Source: an uncultured Candidatus Saccharibacteria bacterium (GTDB lineage Bacteria > Patescibacteriota > Minisyncoccia > Phycocordibacterales > UBA9973). Taken from it: a DNA stretch of 51,873 nucleotides. Below are positions 13,150 to 38,614 of this stretch, one piece after another. The notes under the pieces are model-generated. The model was not told the DNA's origin and ran no database searches. It was given only the letters and a program-made list of their open reading frames with translations. The translations under genes were made by a program, and so were the position numbers. Each line of letters opens with the position of its first letter. Position 1 is the first letter of the stretch. The DNA lies in assembly GCA_964645245.1 (NCBI GenBank), contig CAZYBS010000005.1, positions 1 to 51,873 on the forward strand, given 5' to 3'.

Positions 13150-16100
13150 TTATGGAGTTGGCGTCGGTTCCGGCGCTGGTTCTGCCTCGCCCGCCGTAGT
13201 TTCATCCGACGTGTCCGTTGTAGCTTCAGCGGAGTCGGAAGGCTGGGGTTCTGCTGGAGTTTCCTCCCCTCCTTGTGGAGGAGGGGTTAGGGTGGTGATT
13301 TCTCCCGCGGGCTCAGAATTACCACCTCCCTCGCTTGGAGCGAGGACTCCTCCTTCCAAAGGAGGAGAGGGCTCTTCCCCTCCTTGCCCCGCTGTGGCGG
13401 TGGCTTGATCAAGGAGGGGTGCCGGCTCGTCTGCCGGGGTGGTGTCAGTTGCGCATTCTCCAGGTGCTTTGTCAAACTCTCCATTCTTGATGGTCACGCA
13501 ATAGATGTCTCCAGTTTGAGCGTCTTTTATCTCTAATTCTTCGGTAATAACTTTTTTACTCTCAATTACATTAGCCAAAATACTCGCCACCTTCATCACC
13601 CCCTTCTCAAAGACAATCTCAAAAGCGTTCTTGAAGAAAGCGAGAATGGAGTCAAAGAAAGAGTTGCCGGTCTGGGTGCCATCTTCATTTACCTCAAAAG
13701 AGCCAAAACCGGGAGCCCAGTAAGAAAGATTCACAAAGGTTAAGATTTTATCTATGTTCTCGGTGGAGGCCTCCATGGCGATACCCAAACTTGGACCAGG
13801 ATAACTTTGCTTCATCGCATAGCCAGGTATTGTTTTAGACAAAGTCAGTCTGTCTCCCACCTTAATCTCTCCGTTCTCATTACTTATCTTTACCGGCACT
13901 CTACCGCTTAGAGCTATGGCTCTGGTATTCTCCGGAGACACGTCTCCCGGCCAGTCTTTGAGGGTTATTCCCGGCTTGGTTGACACGATGCCGAGTACTG
14001 TCTTGCCTGTGATGCTTGCTTTCTCCACGTATAGCTTTTCATCTGTTAGAGATACCACGTCTCCGGCATTGATGGTCTCATCATGCACCAGATGCTCTTC
14101 GGCCACGTCCGCGCCGCCGCTGGAGCCCCAGATGTAGCCCAGCAATTCAAATGAACCAATACCTGCTGAGACTCTCAAATACAACCCCTGATACTCCGTG
14201 CCAACTACGCCCATTTGTGCGCGAACTGTTCCGTCACTTCTAAACGCAGCTGCGCCTGCGTTCCCTGCGTCTGATGTGGTTTCGTAACCATCAGGTACTC
14301 CGGCCGCTGTATTGATAGCGCCTAAGGTATCACTGGCAGTCCACATGTCCCCCACCACTGGTCCTGGCGGCAGCCCAATACTTACGTCTGTAAGTGTAGG
14401 GATGGTTGCGGTCAGATTAGAAATTATTTCGTATCTATCGAGATAGCGAACCTCATGGTCAAAAGCTGAGAAGGCGTCAAAATTACTTCCGCTATCGTTG
14501 TATACCCACCCCACCTTCGCTTTCTGGTCGTAGCCGGTGGGCATGGTGACGGAAGTATCGTTGCGGGTGACGTAGATTTTGAAGCGATGGTCGCCGGACG
14601 TTTCGTTTGCCCAACTCGTGCCGTTATATAATTCTTGCGTACCGCGCGTGTATCCAGCATCGGTCGTGCCGCGCCATGAAATAAAGTTGGTGTCACTGAT
14701 TGCGTAGTCACCTTGCATGACCAAGTGGTAAGCGGTCAATGCAGACAGCGAAACTGGACTACGGAACACGAACCGGACCTGCTGGGCCGTTGTGCTCACC
14801 AGTGACACATCGAGCTTGTCTGATGTCGCAAGGACAGTTCCGCTTGGAAGTCCAGACGTATCACTTTGAACTTCCAGCCAGAATCGGCCAGTCGGTGAAG
14901 CATTTTTGACTACTTCGACATCGACGAACTCCACCAGACCGGCTGTATCATTCTGAAATTCCTGAGCGATGGCCGTGCGTGCCCCGGCGTCACGAAGCCC
15001 TTGACTTGACAGAAGAGTCCCGATGGCTTCCTCATCCTTGAAATAATCCTTGGCCCGATGCAGGAGCAGATTCTTCGTCCCATCGGATGATTTCCTGATG
15101 GCGTAGATTTCATACCAGGTGGAAGCGGCTTCTGCTCCGGTATCCAGTCCTCCGGCACCGGCAGTGGTAATGACAGCAGACAGGTCATCCCAGGTCGTGA
15201 CTCTGTTCCCCGTATCCATCACGATCTCATCCGCATGGTCCAGGGTAACGGTAGTCGCCGCTACATCAGCGTTGGGAGAGGTTCTTAGGGAAAGACCTTT
15301 GAAGTCTTGCGAGATGCCTTCTGTCTTGGTAGTCCAAGATAGTGCTCCGGAACCATTGGTGGTCAAGACTTGGCCACTGGTGCCGTCAGCAATAGGAAGA
15401 GTGTAAGTGACATTCCCGGCCTGGGCCGCTGCCTTGAAACCGGTGTAGTTTGTTCCTGAACCGGAAGGTTCCAGGAAACGGAATTCAGCTGCCGAGGTAG
15501 AACCTCCGAAGTTAAGGACAGTAGTGGCGGAAGCACCAATGTTAAGGGTCGTGGCCGCTCCGAAAGCATTGACTGTGGTAGCCGTAGTGTTAAGAAGAGC
15601 AAAGGTGGTTGAGTCGGTGGTTAGAGAGGTGGTTAACTGAGGAGAAGTGGCGAGGACTAGAGAGCCTGTTCCCGTCTGATTGGTGGTGGTTAAAGCCGTC
15701 CCTCCACCTAAAGCCAGGGAGGTTCCGGTGGCTACTCCCAAGGTTGGAGTAATAAGGGTCGGAGAAGTGGAGAAGACTAAAGAACCGGAGCCGGTTTCAT
15801 CACTAATCACTCCCAAGAGTTGCAGAGAAGTCGTAGCCGAGAAGATTGAGAGGTCATTGGTAGTTAAAGTCACTGTGCCTGTGGCATTGGGAAAAGTAAT
15901 CGTCCGGTCAGCCGTCGGATCAGTCAGAGCAAAAGTTGTTTCAAAGTCATTGGCGGTGCCTCCTTCCAGCACTAAGGGATTAGCTCCTAAGATGGTTCCG
16001 GTAAAAGTAAGGGTGTCGGTACTTGCATCCCCAAAGGTAGTATTGTCCTGGACAGTTAAGTTGCCGGCGATAGTAGTAGCCCCGGTGGAGGTGGAGCCGG

Positions 16101-17181
16101 ATAATATTAAATTGCCGGCATAGATATCCCCCTCGGCATCCACCAGGAACTTGATAGTGCCTCCGACCGCAGCCGAGATGAGATTGCCGTCAGCGATGGA
16201 AGAAGCCGGATTGATGTAAATAGTTCCATCGGAAGCATTGGAAGTGCCGGTGGGCCAGGAGGAAAAGACATGAGCCAAGGTGGGAACTTTAGTGAAAGTA
16301 GATTGAGCGGTGGAAGTCAGCAAACTATTGGTGATGACTAGGCCGTTTAGAGTAGTAGTGCCGGTAACCGTCAGAGCTCCTCCCAGGGTAGTCAAGCCTG
16401 TGCCAACGGTAAAAGTGTTGGTACCAGTCACACTTGTTGCCCCACTCAAAGAGATGGCTCCAGTACCAGTGCTGAAAGTGTTGGCGCCGGTCTGGGAAAA
16501 AGTATTGGTCAGAGTCGTCGCCCCGGAGAGAGTCGTCGCCCCGGAGAGAGTGGTTGCTCCGGCAACCGTCAGAGCTCCAGTCACCGTCTGACTGCCGGCA
16601 ATGGTGGAATTGCCGGAGACCGCCAGAGTGGTAATGTTAGCTAGGTTGTTGGTCAATTGGTCCGAAGTGATATTGGTAGCGGAGAAGTAAGAGGCGCCGG
16701 AGAAGTTAACTTTCGGGTCGGGCGGAGCGATGTAGACTTGAGCATTTGAAGAGCTTGCTTGCGCGGACAAGCCGGGTTCTCCCCTCGGTCCTTCTGGACC
16801 TCGGGACCCTGCTGGGCCGGCTGGGCCGCGCAATTTGTCCACAAATTCTTTTTTACTCAATAAATTCTGGAGAGCGGAAGCCAGGGCGGAATCAGCAGTC
16901 ACAGACCCCTCCTCAATCCTCCCCTTAGCAGGGGAGGAGGAAACAGGCTGAATGTAAGCCTTGTAAGCATTGATTATGTCTGATTCGTTGGGCGAGTCAG
17001 GTTCTGAAACGTAAGCCTTGTAAGCATCCATTAAAGAAGTGCTGGTGAGGTTTTGTGCAAGAACATTTGATACCGGAGATGAAACCAAAACGACCAAGAC
17101 CAAAAGTCCGAGTAGAAATTCCACTCTTCTAGATATTTTCCCGCCAAATCGGCGGGCAAGCCTAAAATTTTTTGGTATCAT
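13150..17181 (-). CDS. 1343-aa exported fibre/adhesin-like protein
   Basis: Signal peptide, collagen-like G-X-Y stretch, T/G-rich beta repeats (ATTLSG x3), tail-fibre-like motifs (DETGSGSLVFSTSPTL, GGLDTGAEAASTWY), GADVAE...GRVPVK chaperone-like domain and an acidic P/E tail. Confidence 0.9.
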   Translation of the reverse strand: MIPKNFRLARRFGGKISRRVEFLLGLLVLVVLVSSPVSNVLAQNLTSTSLMDAYKAYVSEPDSPNESDIINAYKAYIQPVSSSPAKGRIEEGSVTADSALASALQNLLSKKEFVDKLRGPAGPAGSRGPEGPRGEPGLSAQASSSNAQVYIAPPDPKVNFSGASYFSATNITSDQLTNNLANITTLAVSGNSTIAGSQTVTGALTVAGATTLSGATTLSGATTLTNTFSQTGANTFSTGTGAISLSGATSVTGTNTFTVGTGLTTLGGALTVTGTTTLNGLVITNSLLTSTAQSTFTKVPTLAHVFSSWPTGTSNASDGTIYINPASSIADGNLISAAVGGTIKFLVDAEGDIYAGNLILSGSTSTGATTIAGNLTVQDNTTFGDASTDTLTFTGTILGANPLVLEGGTANDFETTFALTDPTADRTITFPNATGTVTLTTNDLSIFSATTSLQLLGVISDETGSGSLVFSTSPTLITPTLGVATGTSLALGGGTALTTTNQTGTGSLVLATSPQLTTSLTTDSTTFALLNTTATTVNAFGAATTLNIGASATTVLNFGGSTSAAEFRFLEPSGSGTNYTGFKAAAQAGNVTYTLPIADGTSGQVLTTNGSGALSWTTKTEGISQDFKGLSLRTSPNADVAATTVTLDHADEIVMDTGNRVTTWDDLSAVITTAGAGGLDTGAEAASTWYEIYAIRKSSDGTKNLLLHRAKDYFKDEEAIGTLLSSQGLRDAGARTAIAQEFQNDTAGLVEFVDVEVVKNASPTGRFWLEVQSDTSGLPSGTVLATSDKLDVSLVSTTAQQVRFVFRSPVSLSALTAYHLVMQGDYAISDTNFISWRGTTDAGYTRGTQELYNGTSWANETSGDHRFKIYVTRNDTSVTMPTGYDQKAKVGWVYNDSGSNFDAFSAFDHEVRYLDRYEIISNLTATIPTLTDVSIGLPPGPVVGDMWTASDTLGAINTAAGVPDGYETTSDAGNAGAAAFRSDGTVRAQMGVVGTEYQGLYLRVSAGIGSFELLGYIWGSSGGADVAEEHLVHDETINAGDVVSLTDEKLYVEKASITGKTVLGIVSTKPGITLKDWPGDVSPENTRAIALSGRVPVKISNENGEIKVGDRLTLSKTIPGYAMKQSYPGPSLGIAMEASTENIDKILTFVNLSYWAPGFGSFEVNEDGTQTGNSFFDSILAFFKNAFEIVFEKGVMKVASILANVIESKKVITEELEIKDAQTGDIYCVTIKNGEFDKAPGECATDTTPADEPAPLLDQATATAGQGGEEPSPPLEGGVLAPSEGGGNSEPAGEITTLTPPPQGGEETPAEPQPSDSAEATTDTSDETTAGEAEPAPEPTPTP
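13265..13423. repeat. three DUF559-type palindromic units inside the CDS
   Basis: 13265-13287 is 23/23 identical to 37352-37374; 13321-13368 parallels 37404-37454; the third unit 13375-13423 has a nested insert. Confidence 0.85.
16905..16938. repeat. DUF559-type palindromic unit inside the CDS
   Basis: TCCTCCCCT-tagc-AGGGGAGGA with an ACCCCTCC flank; encodes SSPAKGRIEEGS. Confidence 0.7.
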
Positions 17182-17256: not shown

Positions 17257-17342
17257 TTCTCCTCTTTGAGGAGTACCCTTTAGGGGGAGGTGGAAAGTCC
17301 ACCCCGCTCCGACCCAGGTCGGAGCACCCCTCAAGAGGGGAA
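17257..17342. repeat. intergenic doublet of DUF559-type palindromic units
   Basis: CTCCTC-ttt-GAGGAGTAC(hairpin)GGGAGGTGG followed by an inverted CCACCCC(hairpin)CACCCCTC-aa-GAGGGG. Confidence 0.8.
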
Positions 17343-17528: not shown

Positions 17529-18455
17529 ATGGAAACAGAAGATATACAGCAAAAAATAAATGAATTGGAAGCGAAAATGACTTCGGTGGACTTTTGGGCT
17601 GATAAGAATAAAGCGCAGGCGGCCTTGAAAGAATTAGCAGGACTCAAAGCAAAAAAAGAGGGTTTGGGAAAATATGACAAAGGCAATGCAATTATGACCA
17701 TCATTTCCGGCGCCGGAGGGGACGATGCCGAAGATTTTTCGGCGATACTTCTCTCTATGTATATGAAGTATGCGAATAAAAAGGGTTGGGAGATTTCTTT
17801 TATACATGAGCATAAAAACGACCATGGAGGGTACAGGAATGTTTCTTTTGAAATTTCTGACCTCACCCGTCGCCCTCTCCTTAATAAGGAGAGGGGTGGG
17901 GAGAGGTTGGGCCCCTATGGAAATTTAAAAAACGAAACGGGTGTGCATCGTCTGGTGCGTATTTCTCCTTTTAATGCAAAAAAATTAAGACACACTTCTT
18001 TTTCCCTAGTTGAAGTTCTGCCCAAATTTTCAAAACTGCAAGAGCGTGATGTTGTATTGTCACCCGAGGATTTGAAAGTAGAGTTTGCCCGCTCCAGCGG
18101 GCCGGGCGGGCAAAATGTGAATAAAAGGGAAACGGCGGTCAGAATTATTCATCTTCCGACCGGGATTTCCGCCCATGTTTCAAGCGAACGCTCGCAGGAG
18201 CAAAACCGCGAACTTGCTCTCTCCATTCTGCGCGCCAGAATTTTTAAAAAAGCCGAAGAAGAGAAAAAAAGTATAGAAGAGAGTATAAAAATTACCAGAA
18301 ACACCGAGATAGAATGGGGAAATCAAATTCGCTCTTACGTGCTCCATCCTTACAAAATGGTCAAAGACCACCGAACCGGCGCCGAAACTTCAAACACTGA
18401 CGCTGTTTTGAATGGCGAGATAGATATTTTCATAGAGGCGGAGAAAAGTTTATAA
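17529..18455 (+). CDS. prfB: peptide chain release factor 2 (short N-domain, in-frame palindrome insertion)
   Basis: GVHRLVRISPF (SPF), GPGGQNVNK and WGNQIRSYVLHPY motifs. Confidence 0.93.
   Translation: METEDIQQKINELEAKMTSVDFWADKNKAQAALKELAGLKAKKEGLGKYDKGNAIMTIISGAGGDDAEDFSAILLSMYMKYANKKGWEISFIHEHKNDHGGYRNVSFEISDLTRRPLLNKERGGERLGPYGNLKNETGVHRLVRISPFNAKKLRHTSFSLVEVLPKFSKLQERDVVLSPEDLKVEFARSSGPGGQNVNKRETAVRIIHLPTGISAHVSSERSQEQNRELALSILRARIFKKAEEEKKSIEESIKITRNTEIEWGNQIRSYVLHPYKMVKDHRTGAETSNTDAVLNGEIDIFIEAEKSL
17860..17908. repeat. DUF559-type palindromic unit in-frame in prfB
   Basis: CCCTCTCCTT-aat-AAGGAGAGGG at 17873-17895 plus GGGGAGAGGT; encodes LTRRPLLNKERGGERL. Confidence 0.85.
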
Positions 18456-29080: not shown

Positions 29081-29823
29081 GCTACGGAGGGCTACGGAGG
29101 CGTTGCCTCCGTACCTTCTAATTATCAAAACTAAGCCACTCTAAGAGTTCTTTTTTGTGATCATTTGGTTTTTTGAAATAAGCAGGGAATGGTGTTGGGT
29201 TTATGATTTTAAATTTTAGTTTAGTGTATTCTTTTAAACTTGAATACCGGTAGGAAAAGACATATTTTAACAAATCCGCACTGTTTCTGTGTTTATTTTC
29301 TTTCCAATTCTTGTCTATTAGTTTTACAGGGTTTAGGTGTATGTATGAGTACAAATATTTCAAATACCTATCACTACTTGCGTGGATTGATTTAAATACT
29401 CCTTCATATAATTTGCCTGTCCGCTTGTATTTTTTATTAAAATACATCGAATAGCTAGTCATTAGCTTAAGCATATACTTAGAAATTCCACCTTCAATTT
29501 TTTCATGAGCGAGTATGTGAAAATGATTAGGCATTAAACAATATAGTCCTATATCAACTATAATTTCTCCACGGTCAAAATTTTCACCAATATTTCTCAA
29601 TTCTATACTTTTTGTGGTATTACAAATATACATTAGAAATAAAAAATGCTCATAGTCTTGCTCGTCCAAAAATATTACTCTTTTTTCTGTACCACGATTA
29701 TATAGGTGATAAAATTCACCAGGTGCAAAAACTTGTTTTCTTAAAGCCATCTGTTTAGTATAACATGGAAAAATACGGAGGCAACGCCTCCGTGACCCCT
29801 CCGTGACCCCTCCGTGACCTCCA
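29081..29823 (-). mobile_element. RAYT/REP-type element: Y1 transposase with flanking palindromes
   Basis: TACGGAGG-cgttg-CCTCCGTA at 29093-29113 and its inverse TACGGAGG-caacg-CCTCCGTG at 29774-29794, with extra half-sites on the outer sides. Confidence 0.85.
29118..29750 (-). CDS. REP-associated tyrosine (HUH/Y1) transposase
   Basis: YHLYNRG, YCLMPNHFH, YIHLNP and YSS motifs. Confidence 0.92.
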   Translation of the reverse strand: MALRKQVFAPGEFYHLYNRGTEKRVIFLDEQDYEHFLFLMYICNTTKSIELRNIGENFDRGEIIVDIGLYCLMPNHFHILAHEKIEGGISKYMLKLMTSYSMYFNKKYKRTGKLYEGVFKSIHASSDRYLKYLYSYIHLNPVKLIDKNWKENKHRNSADLLKYVFSYRYSSLKEYTKLKFKIINPTPFPAYFKKPNDHKKELLEWLSFDN

Positions 29824-35539: not shown

Positions 35540-36853
35540 ATGGAAGATTTTGACTTAATAAAATTTATGAAAAACATTTTTGCAAACAAAAATTTTGTGT
35601 ATCTGTATTTTTTGCTTTTACTATCCTTAATTGTTATTTTCGGGTTTTTGGCGGGAGCAGTATTCTACTTTAGAGCAAATATTTTCTCATACTTTGCCGA
35701 AGAGTATTTACAAAAAAACCAAGAGCAAAGTCTGAATGATAAAGACGATACAAAAGTTGCCACTGAAAAAATTATTGAGAAACAATTAATTTTTTCTAGA
35801 GAATCTTTTGTTATTGATGCGGTGAAAAAAGCAAATCCGGCCGTCATATCTATAATTATCTCCAAAGAAGTTCCAACCTACGAAACTTATATTGATCCCA
35901 ATCAACAGCAAAATCCATTTGGGGATTTATTTCCTGGTTTTTCTTTTAACATCCCGCAATATCGTCAAAAAGGAACAGAGAAAAAACAAATTGGCGGAGG
36001 ATCGGGGTTTTTTGTATCCAGTGATGGTCTAATTGTCACCAATAGGCATGTGGTTGACCAAAAAGATGTTGAATATACTGTTTTTACCAATGATGGTAAA
36101 AAACATATAGCCCAAGTTATTGCCCGTGATCCAATTCTCGATATTGCTCTTATAAAGATTGAGGGAAATAATTTCCCAAGTCTTGCTCTGGGCAATTCAG
36201 AAACGCTCCAAGTAGGGCAGAGTGTTATTGCTATAGGTAATGCCCTAGCCGAATTTAGGAATACTGTTTCGGTCGGGGTAATTTCTGGCCTGGCCCGTTC
36301 AATCACGGCAGGAATTTCTTTCGGAAACAGAGAGGTATTGGACCATGTTATTCAAACAGATGCGGCAATTAATCCCGGCAATTCCGGCGGACCGTTGCTG
36401 GATCTTTCCGGTAAAGTGATTGGTGTCAATGTTGCCATTGCCCAGGGGTCTCAAAATATAGGTTTTGCCTTGCCGATAAATAGCGTCAAAAGCGCGATTG
36501 AATCGGTAAAAACAACCGGCAAAATTGTTCGTCCATATTTGGGTCTGCGCTATGTGGCCATCAATGCCGAGATGAAAGAAAAAAATAATTTAACTGTTGA
36601 TTACGGAGTATTGATTAAAGCTGGAGCTAATGCGAATGAACTGGCCGTTATTCCGGGCAGTCCGGCGGACAAAGCCGGCATCGTGGAGAATGATATAATT
36701 CTTAAAGTGGACGGGGTCAAACTGGACGACCAGACAAATCTGGCTTCTATTATTCGGGAGAAAAAAATTGGCCAAGTGATAAATCTAAAAATTCTGCATA
36801 AAGGCGTTGAAAAAAATGTTTCCGTCACTCTCGAAGCCGCAAAGGATAGTTAG
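35540..36853 (+). CDS. htrA: HtrA/DegP-like serine protease with PDZ domain
   Basis: TNRHV, DIAL and QTDAAINPGNSGGPL motifs; PDZ GSPADKAG. Confidence 0.95.
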   Translation: MEDFDLIKFMKNIFANKNFVYLYFLLLLSLIVIFGFLAGAVFYFRANIFSYFAEEYLQKNQEQSLNDKDDTKVATEKIIEKQLIFSRESFVIDAVKKANPAVISIIISKEVPTYETYIDPNQQQNPFGDLFPGFSFNIPQYRQKGTEKKQIGGGSGFFVSSDGLIVTNRHVVDQKDVEYTVFTNDGKKHIAQVIARDPILDIALIKIEGNNFPSLALGNSETLQVGQSVIAIGNALAEFRNTVSVGVISGLARSITAGISFGNREVLDHVIQTDAAINPGNSGGPLLDLSGKVIGVNVAIAQGSQNIGFALPINSVKSAIESVKTTGKIVRPYLGLRYVAINAEMKEKNNLTVDYGVLIKAGANANELAVIPGSPADKAGIVENDIILKVDGVKLDDQTNLASIIREKKIGQVINLKILHKGVEKNVSVTLEAAKDS

Positions 36854-36885
36854 TCACACCTCGCTCTAAAAATACAAATCAAAAA

Positions 36886-36990
36886 TCACCACCCCTAGCC
36901 CCTCCTCACTAAGGAGGGGAGGGAACAAATTGGGACCCTCTCCTCTTCATGAAAGAGGAGTACCTGACTTTAGGTCAGGGGAGGTGGTGA
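36886..36990. repeat. two palindromic units at the 3' end of the DUF559 gene
   Basis: TCACCACCCC..CCCCTCCT-cacta-AGGAGGGG (36886-36920) and CTCCTCTT..AAGAGGAGTAC(CCTGAC/GTCAGG)GGAGGTGGTGA (36938-36990). Confidence 0.88.
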
Positions 36991-37336
36991 GTTCCTCTTT
37001 TATTTTTCTGATTACTCTTTCTGTTTCTGTACTTACTTCCAAATTCGTAAAACGTACAACTTTTATATTCAACCCATCGAAATAACTGCTTCTTATTTTA
37101 TCGTATTCTTTGTTTTCTTTTTTAAAATGCTGTGGCCCATCAATCTCAATTACTAATTTCTTTGCTGGGCAATAGAAATCAACAATATAACCGCCAATGC
37201 TATGTTGTCTCCGAAACTTAAAGCCCGTTTGAGAATTTTTCAGTTGTAGCCACAACAAAATTTCTTCCGGCGTACTACTATTTCTCAATTCTTTTCTTCT
37301 GTGAAGTAAACTTGTTATATTGTGTACAATCTTCAT
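36947..37336 (-). CDS. DUF559 (Vsr-like) endonuclease domain protein
   Basis: RKELR..ST.EE.LLW, KFRRQH.IG.YIVDFYC, LVIEIDG.QH, YD..R and VVRFTN motifs. Confidence 0.92.
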   Translation of the reverse strand: MKIVHNITSLLHRRKELRNSSTPEEILLWLQLKNSQTGFKFRRQHSIGGYIVDFYCPAKKLVIEIDGPQHFKKENKEYDKIRSSYFDGLNIKVVRFTNLEVSTETERVIRKIKEELTTSPDLKSGTPLS

Positions 37337-37351
37337 TTGAATTTTGTTTCT

Positions 37352-37454
37352 TCCCCTCCTTGTGGAGGAGGGGTGCCCTTTAGGGCGGGGTGGTGATTAA
37401 TATACCGCCTCCCTCCGACTAAGTCGGAGTACTCCTCCTAAATTTAGGAGGAGA
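37352..37454. repeat. two palindromic units upstream of the DUF559 gene
   Basis: CCCCTCCT-tgtgg-AGGAGGGGT(GCCCT/AGGGC)GGGGTGGTGA and ACCGCCTCC(CTCCGAC/GTCGGAG)TACTCCTCCTAA..TTAGGAGGAG. Confidence 0.88.
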
Positions 37455-37462
37455 GGATAATC

Positions 37463-38614
37463 TCAAATATCACTTTTTCTTATCGTGGAAGCAAGATAGA
37501 CTCCATAAAGCATTAATGTTCCAAGAATCAAGTATATGAAATTGAAAGATGGGATGAAAATAAAAATTATCAAAGCTACGAGTGGGCCTATAACATATGC
37601 TACTGGAGTTGCGCTACGATAGACCCCGACAAATTCTTCATTTTCTGGTTTTATATGTTTAAAAAAATATACATCGCTCATCACCTCAATCGTAGCGGCT
37701 CCAACTCTCGTTGCAAATAGCATAAGAGCCCATATCCAAACTTCGGATTTTTGGATGAAAAAAAGCGCTAGAGTAAAAACCGAAGCTGTGAAAAATCCAA
37801 ACATCAACATTTTTCTTTCGCCCACCTTATCTCCATATTTTCCGATATGAAATGGAAGTATGGAAAACGGCAGAAGCATTACGGCGAAGATGATGCCGAT
37901 TTCGCTCCAATCAAATCCTAAATGCGCTGATAAGTATATCGGCGTATATATTACCATCCAACAAAAAAATAATTGAAGCAGGAGATTTATATTATATGAA
38001 CGGAACAGATTTTTATTTTTAAAAAATTCCTTGATGTATTTTATCGTTTTTAATTTATCGTATTTCGGATCTGGAATGTCTTCGAGATTAAAAAAACACA
38101 ACAAGAAAAACAGTATCATTATGGAAAATGCAGTGATATAAATCATCCTGAAAGAAAATTCTCCTAAAATTGTGCCGGACGCCAACTGCGCCAAGATCCA
38201 AGCCGAACTACTCACGGCGAGGTAAATCCCTCTTGTTTTTCCAGTTGAAGAGTTTTTAGAAAATATTTTCAGAATCTCATCCAATGAAAAAACGATTACG
38301 GTGTTCAGAGCAAAACCAAGAATGAATGCCAAAGTTGCAACCCACGCATTTTTTGCCAAGGCAAAAGCTAAGATAGACAAAGTGTCAAGTCCGATCACAA
38401 AAAGCAAAAACTTATATCCCCCGAGTTTCCTGAATATAGTTGGAGTTGTCAAAAGAGCCAAAATTGAGGCTACGGACCCTAGGGTATAAGTTATCCCCAT
38501 CAATTTTCCACTGACAAAAGAAGAAAGAAAGCTCGAGTTTATGTAGGACATCAGAGCTATCGGTAGGGAAAATAAGAAACCGGCTAAATATATTATTTTT
38601 TTATTATATTTCAT
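37463..38614 (-). CDS. MFS transporter
   Basis: About 12 TM segments; GKYGDKVGERK motif A. Confidence 0.88.
   Translation of the reverse strand: MKYNKKIIYLAGFLFSLPIALMSYINSSFLSSFVSGKLMGITYTLGSVASILALLTTPTIFRKLGGYKFLLFVIGLDTLSILAFALAKNAWVATLAFILGFALNTVIVFSLDEILKIFSKNSSTGKTRGIYLAVSSSAWILAQLASGTILGEFSFRMIYITAFSIMILFFLLCFFNLEDIPDPKYDKLKTIKYIKEFFKNKNLFRSYNINLLLQLFFCWMVIYTPIYLSAHLGFDWSEIGIIFAVMLLPFSILPFHIGKYGDKVGERKMLMFGFFTASVFTLALFFIQKSEVWIWALMLFATRVGAATIEVMSDVYFFKHIKPENEEFVGVYRSATPVAYVIGPLVALIIFIFIPSFNFIYLILGTLMLYGVYLASTIRKSDI

Follow-up and report, generated by a model that had tools for sequence, protein, structure and literature searches.

The BoxC repeats, also called potential intrastrand triplex (PIT) elements and triplex motif (TM, TMECO) repeats, have been known since the 1990s, and the reference list of Holder (2015, PMC4666352) traces the name BoxC to a 1992 paper on envM. 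According to the same account, MG1655 carries 23 TM copies, always intergenic; the repeats are of two types, paired as inverted doublets, occur in more than 260 genomes and are associated with variable regions and genome instability. Its introduction states that PIT elements displayed no promoter or terminator activity in earlier work. Its authors report that remnants of a transposase or integrase were never found near the repeats, and the words endonuclease and ycjD are absent from its main text. Here, a DUF559 nuclease gene is described that lies between four units closely resembling these repeats. It was found in a 51,873-nt stretch (below, the window) that constitutes contig C5 (CAZYBS010000005.1) of a 648-kb, 13-contig Nomurabacteria genome of ∼40% GC. 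The data suggest, with a probability of about 55%, that DUF559 is the cognate nuclease of the BoxC/PIT/TM repeats, which it would bind and cleave.

The layout of this locus recalls the systems of repetitive extragenic palindromes and their associated tyrosine transposases (REP/RAYT; REPtron, REPIN), in that a single-copy nuclease gene lies between short hairpin repeats in inverted orientation, further copies of which are scattered singly or as inverted doublets, and nuclease paralogues have repeat subfamilies of their own. In contrast to REP/RAYT, the enzyme here is a Vsr-like PD-(D/E)XK nuclease and not an HUH Y1 transposase, the polarity of the repeats is not fixed, and the cassette of gene and units appears to be mobile and can lie in frame in host genes. 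Rickettsia palindromic elements are another family of short palindromes that lie in frame in conserved protein genes of a small genome, where they add peptide loops; their sequence family is different from that of the units in the window, and they are not known to have a partner gene.

On the enzyme side, the Vsr/DUF559 clade includes, in a table row of PMC3424549, a group I intron homing endonuclease. This enzyme, I-Bth0305I, resembles the present case in its nuclease clade, its selfish lifestyle and its presence/absence polymorphism at conserved sites; however, the DUF559 gene here lies outside any intron or intein, and its apparent target would be a repeat with scattered copies, not a single conserved host gene. 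Caulobacter VsrA (CCNA_02930) is an endonuclease with a DUF559 domain that causes DNA damage in vivo (SOS response) when unchecked and has been proposed to act in very-short-patch repair (PMC12907096). Unlike the gene described here, VsrA is tied in that account to a cytosine methyltransferase and T:G mismatch repair, and no association with repeats is reported there.

A DUF559 gene with two palindromic units on each side

The features of the locus are:

36947-37336, minus strand: DUF559 (Vsr-like PD-(D/E)XK) nuclease gene, 129 aa, from the open reading frame (ORF) listing and Pfam
36886-36929, minus orientation: unit A (type 1), with C-block TCACCACCCC at 36886-36895 and hairpin CCCCTCCT..AGGAGGGG at 36899-36919
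36936-36992, plus orientation: unit B (type 2), with hairpin 36940-36960, second hairpin 36963-36977 and G-block GGGGAGGTGGTGA, ending GGTGGTGA
37343-37398, plus orientation: unit C (type 1), with hairpin 37353-37373, small hairpin 37376-37386 and G-block GGGGTGGTGA at 37387-37396
37404-37456, minus orientation: unit D (type 2), with C-block 37404-37413, second hairpin 37414-37430 and hairpin 37432-37453

An earlier note on this DNA had described a 129-aa DUF559 gene bracketed by two palindromic units per side, and direct reading of the sequence bears this out. A unit consists of a homopyrimidine 5' arm, a homopurine 3' arm, sometimes a small second hairpin, and then a G-rich block, which is GGGGTGGTGA or GGGAGGTGGTGA. 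Units A and C share the type 1 stem CCCCTCCT..AGGAGGGG, and units B and D are of type 2, with CTCCTC..GAGGAG and the second hairpin. Units A and C form an inverted pair (100% complementary over 12 nt, 84% over 31 nt), while units C and D are arranged tail-to-tail. The consensus proposed in the earlier note is correct in its general form, but the T(A/G)C linker that it specified fails for unit A, where the linker is CTA. One unit was also said to supply the C-terminus and stop of the gene. Indeed, unit B codes, from the opposite strand, for DUF559 residues 117-129 (the last 13 codons) and the stop codon, which lies in the loop of the unit B hairpin.

The encoded protein matches Pfam PF04480 over residues 12-116 (E=8e-30; 103.4 bits against a curated cut-off of 20.6), and its gene is the sole DUF559 gene in the genome. 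The nearest solved structure is PDB 3HRL, a Neisseria gonorrhoeae "endonuclease-like protein" (E=2.7e-17), which was the only match of the structure search; no direct sequence match to I-Bth0305I was obtained. Residues D53, E64, D66 and H70 are invariant across an alignment of 21 homologues and, by analogy with Vsr, may be catalytic. Against the E. coli YcjD equivalog model (NCBIfam PRK09767) the protein scored 68.7 bits for a cut-off of 218, and is therefore a relative of YcjD and not its equivalog. PADLOC gave only weak nuclease-domain matches, including one to a homing endonuclease at E=0.001, and no defence-system assignment.

Relationship of the units to BoxC/PIT/TM repeats

A scan of the whole genome for perfect homopyrimidine/homopurine hairpins with arms of at least 7 nt returned 69, compared with 0, 0 and 1 in three shuffled sequences. 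A C- or G-block stands beside 59 of these hairpins, compared with 182 of 5000 random positions. Crude ORFs contain 38 of the 69, and the other 31 are intergenic; by the same rough criterion, 86% of the genome is coding. Such hairpins lie near one end of 34 out of 561 crude ORFs, and near both ends of a single one, the DUF559 gene. At least four hairpin subfamilies are present, and three search patterns count 14, 12 and 24 copies. The DUF559 gene is flanked by types 1 and 2, and the other subfamilies (the 12 and 24 copies of two patterns) have no resident partner. A one-to-one pairing of resident nuclease with dispersed subfamilies was rejected for this genome, which has several subfamilies per gene.

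The earlier note had placed about 11 units in the window, both intergenic and in frame, and all are present. Those away from the DUF559 gene are:

13265-13443, no strand given: three units, in frame in the C-terminal part of the 1343-aa ORF 13150-17181 (minus strand)
16905-16938, no strand given: one unit (hairpin 16917-16938), in frame near the N-terminus of ORF 13150-17181
17257-17342, no strand given: intergenic tail-to-tail doublet of a type 2 and a type-1-like unit
17860-17908, plus strand: full unit in frame in prfB, with C-block, hairpin 17873-17895 and G-block

The prfB unit stands in place of a short GKGAYG loop of relatives, and a near-identical copy of the 17257-17342 doublet occupies positions 724-813 of contig C7. 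Inverted doublets of type 1 with type 2 are found at C1 687-795, C1 136981-137068, C1 147257-147368, C2 111718-111813 and C3 10303-10385, as well as at the DUF559 gene. The repeat that flanks DUF559 is, then, also dispersed in the genome as singlets and inverted doublets, and the proposed layout of a gene, flanking inverted units and dispersed copies holds.

Units A-D and the genome-wide copies share with the entries of Holder's Table 1 (PMC4666352) a hairpin followed by a third, G-rich block, the mirror image of the purine arm. The E. coli consensus in that source, CCCTCTCCC..GGGAGAGGG-TTA-GGGTGAGGG, resembles the prfB unit, CCCTCTCC..GGAGAGGG-GT-GGGGAGAGG. In both cases a homopyrimidine arm, loop, homopurine arm, short second loop and G-rich mirror block follow one another, two types are paired as inverted doublets, and tens of copies are dispersed, in variable regions. 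Because the architecture and the two-type pairing are the same and the sequences closely similar, the units in the window are, as judged from their sequence, members of the BoxC/PIT/TM family (PMC4666352). The suggestion in the earlier note that the palindromes are the gene's own, perhaps undescribed family is therefore not supported. The main difference is one of location: the E. coli units are described as intergenic with no mobility gene reported nearby (PMC4666352), whereas about half of those here lie within crude ORFs, including prfB and ORF 13150-17181. The genome also differs in having several stem subfamilies and an embedded DUF559 gene.

Hairpins at both ends of a gene, with a T-run after unit A, could act as terminator, attenuator or mRNA stabiliser of a Vsr-type repair nickase, the dispersed copies being unrelated, and the very-short-patch repair role proposed for the DUF559 enzyme VsrA (PMC12907096) would suit such an enzyme. 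Such an explanation is nevertheless very improbable. The spacing between the upstream hairpin and the start codon varies from 3 to ∼37 nt, 38 of the 69 units are in frame within coding regions, and the summary in PMC4666352 denies PIT elements promoter or terminator activity. Moreover, the neighbours of the gene are an HtrA-like protease gene and a major facilitator superfamily (MFS) transporter gene, which converge on it, and no methyltransferase gene adjoins it at this locus. An Rfam scan of 36700-37600 at E<=10 gave only chance-level matches, none approaching the gathering score.

DUF559 genes and hairpins are associated across genomes

A broad scan of one genome per species, with 8 closer sequences, selected the DUF559 subfamily by two peptide patterns and made no use of hairpins. 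The 80 loci obtained are labelled as candidate phyla radiation (CPR) in 42 cases and as non-CPR in 33, the latter including Nitrospirota, Bacteroidota, Proteobacteria, Chloroflexi, Acidobacteria and Opitutales; five are unlabelled. Loci close to that of the window are labelled Candidatus Nomurabacteria and Paceibacterota. A perfect GC-rich hairpin lies at most 130 nt from a gene end in 71 of the 80 loci, and on both sides in 40. There are 4.2-5.1 hairpins per kb close to the gene and 0.4-0.8 per kb farther away. Nearly all of the near hairpins have the form CCCCTCC..GGAGGGG or CCTCCCC..GGGGAGG, the DNA ranging from 29 to 66% GC, and 143 of 168 carry a C- or G-block. These data suggest that the gene-plus-units cassette is an evolutionary unit across bacteria.

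The same pattern is seen among closer relatives. A hairpin stands close to a gene end in 22 of the 26 stronger loci (the window's own included, and four weak matches, L026-L029, left out), with 3.4 hairpins per kb near the gene and 0.25 per kb far from it. Enrichment of the motif beside DUF559 genes, which had been set beforehand as a test, is thus strong in both collections. By eye, units stand on both sides of most free-standing DUF559 genes of relatives, the one at the 3' end often encoding the C-terminus. At five loci of relatives (L005, L008, L011, L022 and L023) a TATAAT box lies 6-9 nt ahead of the DUF559 start codon, a spacing that hints at leaderless transcripts.

Next, the presence of the gene was compared with the abundance of hairpins in 61 related genomes, in which DUF559 matches occur in 24 of 36 same-genus genomes and four of 24 others. 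Counting as hairpin-rich a genome with at least three matches summed over three patterns, and as DUF559-positive one with a match at E<=1e-15, 19 of 25 positive genomes are hairpin-rich compared with two of 36 negative ones; put the other way, DUF559 is found in 19 of the 21 genomes with at least three hairpins and in six of the 40 with two or fewer. Of 150 Patescibacteria genomes drawn separately, 23 are DUF559-positive and 127 DUF559-negative; 10 of the former and seven of the latter contain the strict type-1 hairpin. Five non-CPR genomes with 2-5 DUF559 matches each hold 25, 12, 6, 3 and 0 strict type-1 hairpins. Gene-less units are, as these counts establish, far commoner where a DUF559 gene is present, and the motif is rarer in genomes that lack one, as had been predicted; the E. 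coli counts given below agree.

The nuclease and its hairpins are also inherited together. The class of flanking hairpin is the same in 95 of 156 DUF559 pairs that are at least 65% identical, compared with 21 of 516 pairs below 40% identity, the classes being crude in that their labels include loop bases. In genome G033, judging from the positions listed, four of five DUF559 matches are adjoined by three different hairpin types, each of which has further copies elsewhere in G033. Around the gene, units are oriented tails-in at 11 of 105 loci and tails-out at nine, with other arrangements in the rest.

Polymorphic sites and in-frame cassettes

The orthologous MFS/HtrA site is occupied in different ways in different genomes. 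It is empty, with 3-15 nt between the two stop codons, in G064 (the closest relative, with an MFS protein 76% identical), G018 and G006. In G014 it holds a lone 43-nt palindrome with C-block, hairpin and G-block, and in G000 and G009 a DUF559 cassette. A second polymorphic site is the loop of leucyl-tRNA synthetase (LeuRS) that precedes the TRPDT motif. Here, 29 loci were compared: three hold an in-frame unit-DUF559-unit cassette (G034, G010 and G026), two a lone unit (G008 and G003), most of the remainder have a short loop, and the motif was not found in the LeuRS of G000 and G036. The cassette carriers are not mutual nearest relatives by LeuRS identity. Empty sites are found at MFS/HtrA and in most LeuRS loops; a third orthologous site with presence/absence polymorphism is fabI-sapF of E. 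coli.

Metagenomic contigs were also examined. None from the source sample skips the cassette, where parts left uncovered carry no weight. A 1907-nt contig from a soil metagenome (run X3) joins position 36627 to 37686, so that the HtrA-like and MFS genes are connected and 1058 nt are skipped. It comes from a distant relative, in which the site could be empty; its likeness to the window is below 90%, and it is therefore silent on excision in the window's organism.

In-frame DUF559 domains occur in LeuRS at L004 (G034:C8), L017 (G026:C23) and L151 (G010:C43), and an in-frame cassette is present in a Tgt-like gene of another family at L030 (G051:C4). All are bracketed by hairpin-encoded peptides of the LP.GEG.GGV kind. 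From its distribution, the gene-bearing cassette appears to be mobile and able to sit in frame inside host genes. The prfB loop is of the short GKGAYG type in ∼20 of the 26 loci listed; G000 and G024 carry units of one subfamily and G014 a unit of another, and other inserts stand at the same point in G064 and G016. Direct repeats of a whole unit bracket the gene at several loci (134 nt in L020 and L064, 46 nt in L085, 73 nt in L068).

Some further features of the LeuRS loop were observed. In G010 and G026 an extra half-unit lies in frame within the DUF559 domain itself. An insert of ∼170 aa (..ILHG..HSMGG..), similar by eye to an alpha/beta-hydrolase, occupies the loop in L156 (G063), L157 (G013) and L148 (G026), and in G026 this hydrolase-like insert adjoins the DUF559 cassette.

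The data on these sites bear on whether the cassette might simply be a free-standing, homing-endonuclease-like selfish gene, for which pre-existing TM units would serve as cleavage target and short homology arms, the units themselves being spread by an unrelated mechanism. The whole-unit direct repeats are the expected trace of copying into, or recombination at, a lone unit, and the in-frame LeuRS and Tgt cassettes sit in loops that hold lone units elsewhere. The nuclease clade contains a group I intron homing endonuclease (table row, PMC3424549), the PADLOC match to a homing endonuclease, if weak, points the same way, and units do exist in genomes without the gene. However, homing alone predicts targets before gene, yet only two of the 21 hairpin-rich relatives are without DUF559. 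It also does not predict that TM cores should be 3-10 times more numerous in ycjD-bearing E. coli lineages, and no other mobilising enzyme was found in searches for rve, DDE_Tnp_1 and TnpB, and the Y1 genes are without family hairpins within 400 nt. Homing of the cassette alone is on balance unlikely, although it deserves more weight than the other alternatives.

The ycjD gene and TM copy number in Escherichia coli

E. coli K-12 ycjD is a DUF559 gene with a hairpin at its stop. It belongs to the order fabI-TM-ycjD-sapF, in which fabI is a gene we take to be identical to envM, and this order is covered to at least 80% in 3346 of 5426 complete E. coli genomes. The TM repeat listed as copy no. 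9 in Holder's Table 1 (PMC4666352), with the sequence CCCTCGCCCC..GGGGAGAGGG-TTA-GGGTGAGGGG, lies 168 nt past the ycjD stop, between ycjD and fabI. The fabI-sapF site is occupied either by the TM-ycjD segment or by the eefRABCD efflux operon (L201, L224); in eef-bearing strains the homology to K-12 stops ∼40 nt before the TM unit, and ycjD is missing. According to PMC12817139 (2026), phylogroups A, B1 and C have ycjD, as do ST69 and ST182, there with a 12-nt longer ORF, and at least two independent replacement events are inferred at the site.

The number of TM cores follows the presence of the gene. Four ycjD-positive strains carry 21, 30, 33 and 16, the last being the strain with the longer ycjD ORF, compared with 5, 3, 4 and 4 in four ycjD-negative strains; no DUF559 match was found on the chromosome of the single ycjD-negative strain checked. 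With eight genomes and perhaps two or three independent contrasts, this comparison is suggestive and not decisive.

A separate observation concerns the 3' end of K-12 ycjD (L201, 2850-2930). About 40 nt of the gene end are duplicated just downstream, beyond a hairpin-bearing segment of ∼65 nt that supplies the present stop codon. The arrangement looks like an insertion with a long target duplication.

It is conceivable that TM units are merely hot spots of recombination or insertion and that DUF559 is an often-transferred passenger with no enzymatic link to them. The E. coli TM sites are described as lying in variable regions (PMC4666352), the ycjD-plus-TM segment alternates with the eef operon at one site, the polarity of the units is variable, and different subfamilies occur repeatedly in the same protein loops. 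Against this, two-sided flanking is unique to the DUF559 gene in the window's genome (one of 561 ORFs), the pairing recurs across phyla from 29% to 66% GC, and nuclease clade and hairpin subfamily are co-inherited. A passive association would also leave unexplained why the constant passenger is one nuclease subfamily, and it is regarded here as improbable, more so than homing.

Y1 transposases and other candidate enzymes

The genome contains seven Y1_Tnp (PF01797, HUH) genes, one of which is in the window:

29118-29750, minus strand: Y1_Tnp (HUH) gene, 210 aa, with its own hairpin ACGGAGGC..GCCTCCGT on both sides and short tandem repeats upstream

The earlier note proposed a REP-like system driven by a non-HUH nuclease; the flanked gene is indeed DUF559, but the genome does hold these seven HUH genes. 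In REP/RAYT systems it is a Y1 gene that is flanked by its cognate REPs, whereas here the gene so placed is DUF559.

In a classical REP/RAYT arrangement the Y1 transposases would mobilise the units and DUF559 would be a bystander. The seven matches are in keeping with this, as is the presence of Y1 in 20 of the 21 hairpin-rich genomes, including G018 and G024, which have hairpins and no DUF559. However, no family hairpin lies within 400 nt of any of the seven genes, and the flanks of five contain another hairpin or repeat, which is the gene's own. Y1 is present in 44 of the 61 relatives, including 24 of the 40 hairpin-poor genomes; some genomes (G002, G003, G015, G046, G053, G056 and G059) combine 3-11 Y1 copies with 0-2 hairpins, and G036 has hairpins and DUF559 without Y1. 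Moreover, within the Y1-positive relatives 18 of 24 genomes with DUF559 are hairpin-rich, compared with two of 20 without it. The units also lack the GTAG/CGTC tag by which PMC3733652 characterises REPs. Together, these data make mobilisation by Y1 highly unlikely.

No match to rve, DDE_Tnp_1 or TnpB was found in the genome. A miniature inverted-repeat element or insertion sequence of the DDE transposon kind does not fit the variable polarity, the lack of a target duplication at the prfB and MFS/HtrA sites and the lack of matches to these three families.

A model for a proposed DUF559-repeat partnership

The preferred reading is that DUF559 is an element-encoded endonuclease which would recognise the units, either as duplex or as extruded hairpin or cruciform, and introduce nicks or breaks into them. 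As the host mends the breaks, units or the entire cassette with its gene would be copied from one site to another, and the gene-less units would behave as non-autonomous copies. Cutting of a unit by DUF559 followed by repair from another copy would explain the instability reported at TM sites. Binding, cleavage, the direction of causality and the arrival of a unit at a naive site are what we infer from the association of gene and repeat.

Several observations count against this model. A lone nuclease cannot carry out strand transfer, and no target-site duplication was seen at the prfB, LeuRS or MFS/HtrA sites. One DUF559 gene in the window's genome faces at least four hairpin subfamilies, with no one-to-one match, and the units around the gene have no fixed orientation. 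Copy number does not scale with gene number, with one gene and 50 hairpins in G000 and three genes and five hairpins in G001. Hairpins occur without DUF559 in G018 (nine hairpins, 99% complete) and G024 (11 hairpins, 86% complete), and seven DUF559-negative genomes of the Patescibacteria draw carry the strict type-1 hairpin; five of these seven were rechecked at E<=0.01, and none has a DUF559 match above the Pfam cut-off. Among four such genomes that were fetched, G142, G184 and G077 contain true hairpin-plus-block units and G162 plain hairpins. Units can therefore persist without the gene. The presence of Y1 also correlates with hairpin richness (20 of 44 genomes with Y1 compared with one of 17 without). 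The related genomes are non-independent samples, and their kinship means that Fisher values for the co-occurrence overstate the case. In E. coli, the ycjD-negative strains keep 3-5 TM cores, and three of the four have the same FabI protein accession and so may be one lineage.

A wider proposal can be put forward only tentatively, as somewhat less probable than the reading of DUF559 as cognate nuclease. DUF559/YcjD may be the missing enzyme partner of BoxC/PIT/TM repeats throughout Bacteria, forming a non-HUH symbiosis of nuclease and repeat beside RAYT-REP that would cause the instability of TM sites, move its own cassette between units and seed in-frame peptide insertions in essential CPR proteins such as RF2 and LeuRS. 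A search of full texts, with few subscription journals among them, found no paper that pairs BoxC or triplex motif with DUF559, YcjD, Vsr or very short patch. Both the repeats and the protein belong to known families; what appears to be new is their pairing. By analogy, it would be a partnership of the REP/RAYT kind with a different enzyme and a putative triplex-forming repeat.

The DUF559 domain is very widespread and the subfamily studied here has no assigned function, while neither an origin nor a function nor a mobilising enzyme is known for the BoxC/PIT/TM repeats; the pairing of the two offers both partners a testable role. Such tests are feasible in E. coli K-12, with one ycjD gene and 23 mapped TM sites. 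If the pairing is true, a second enzyme class would join the small set of nuclease-repeat partnerships, and there could be an explanation for the palindromes inserted in frame in the minimal CPR genomes.

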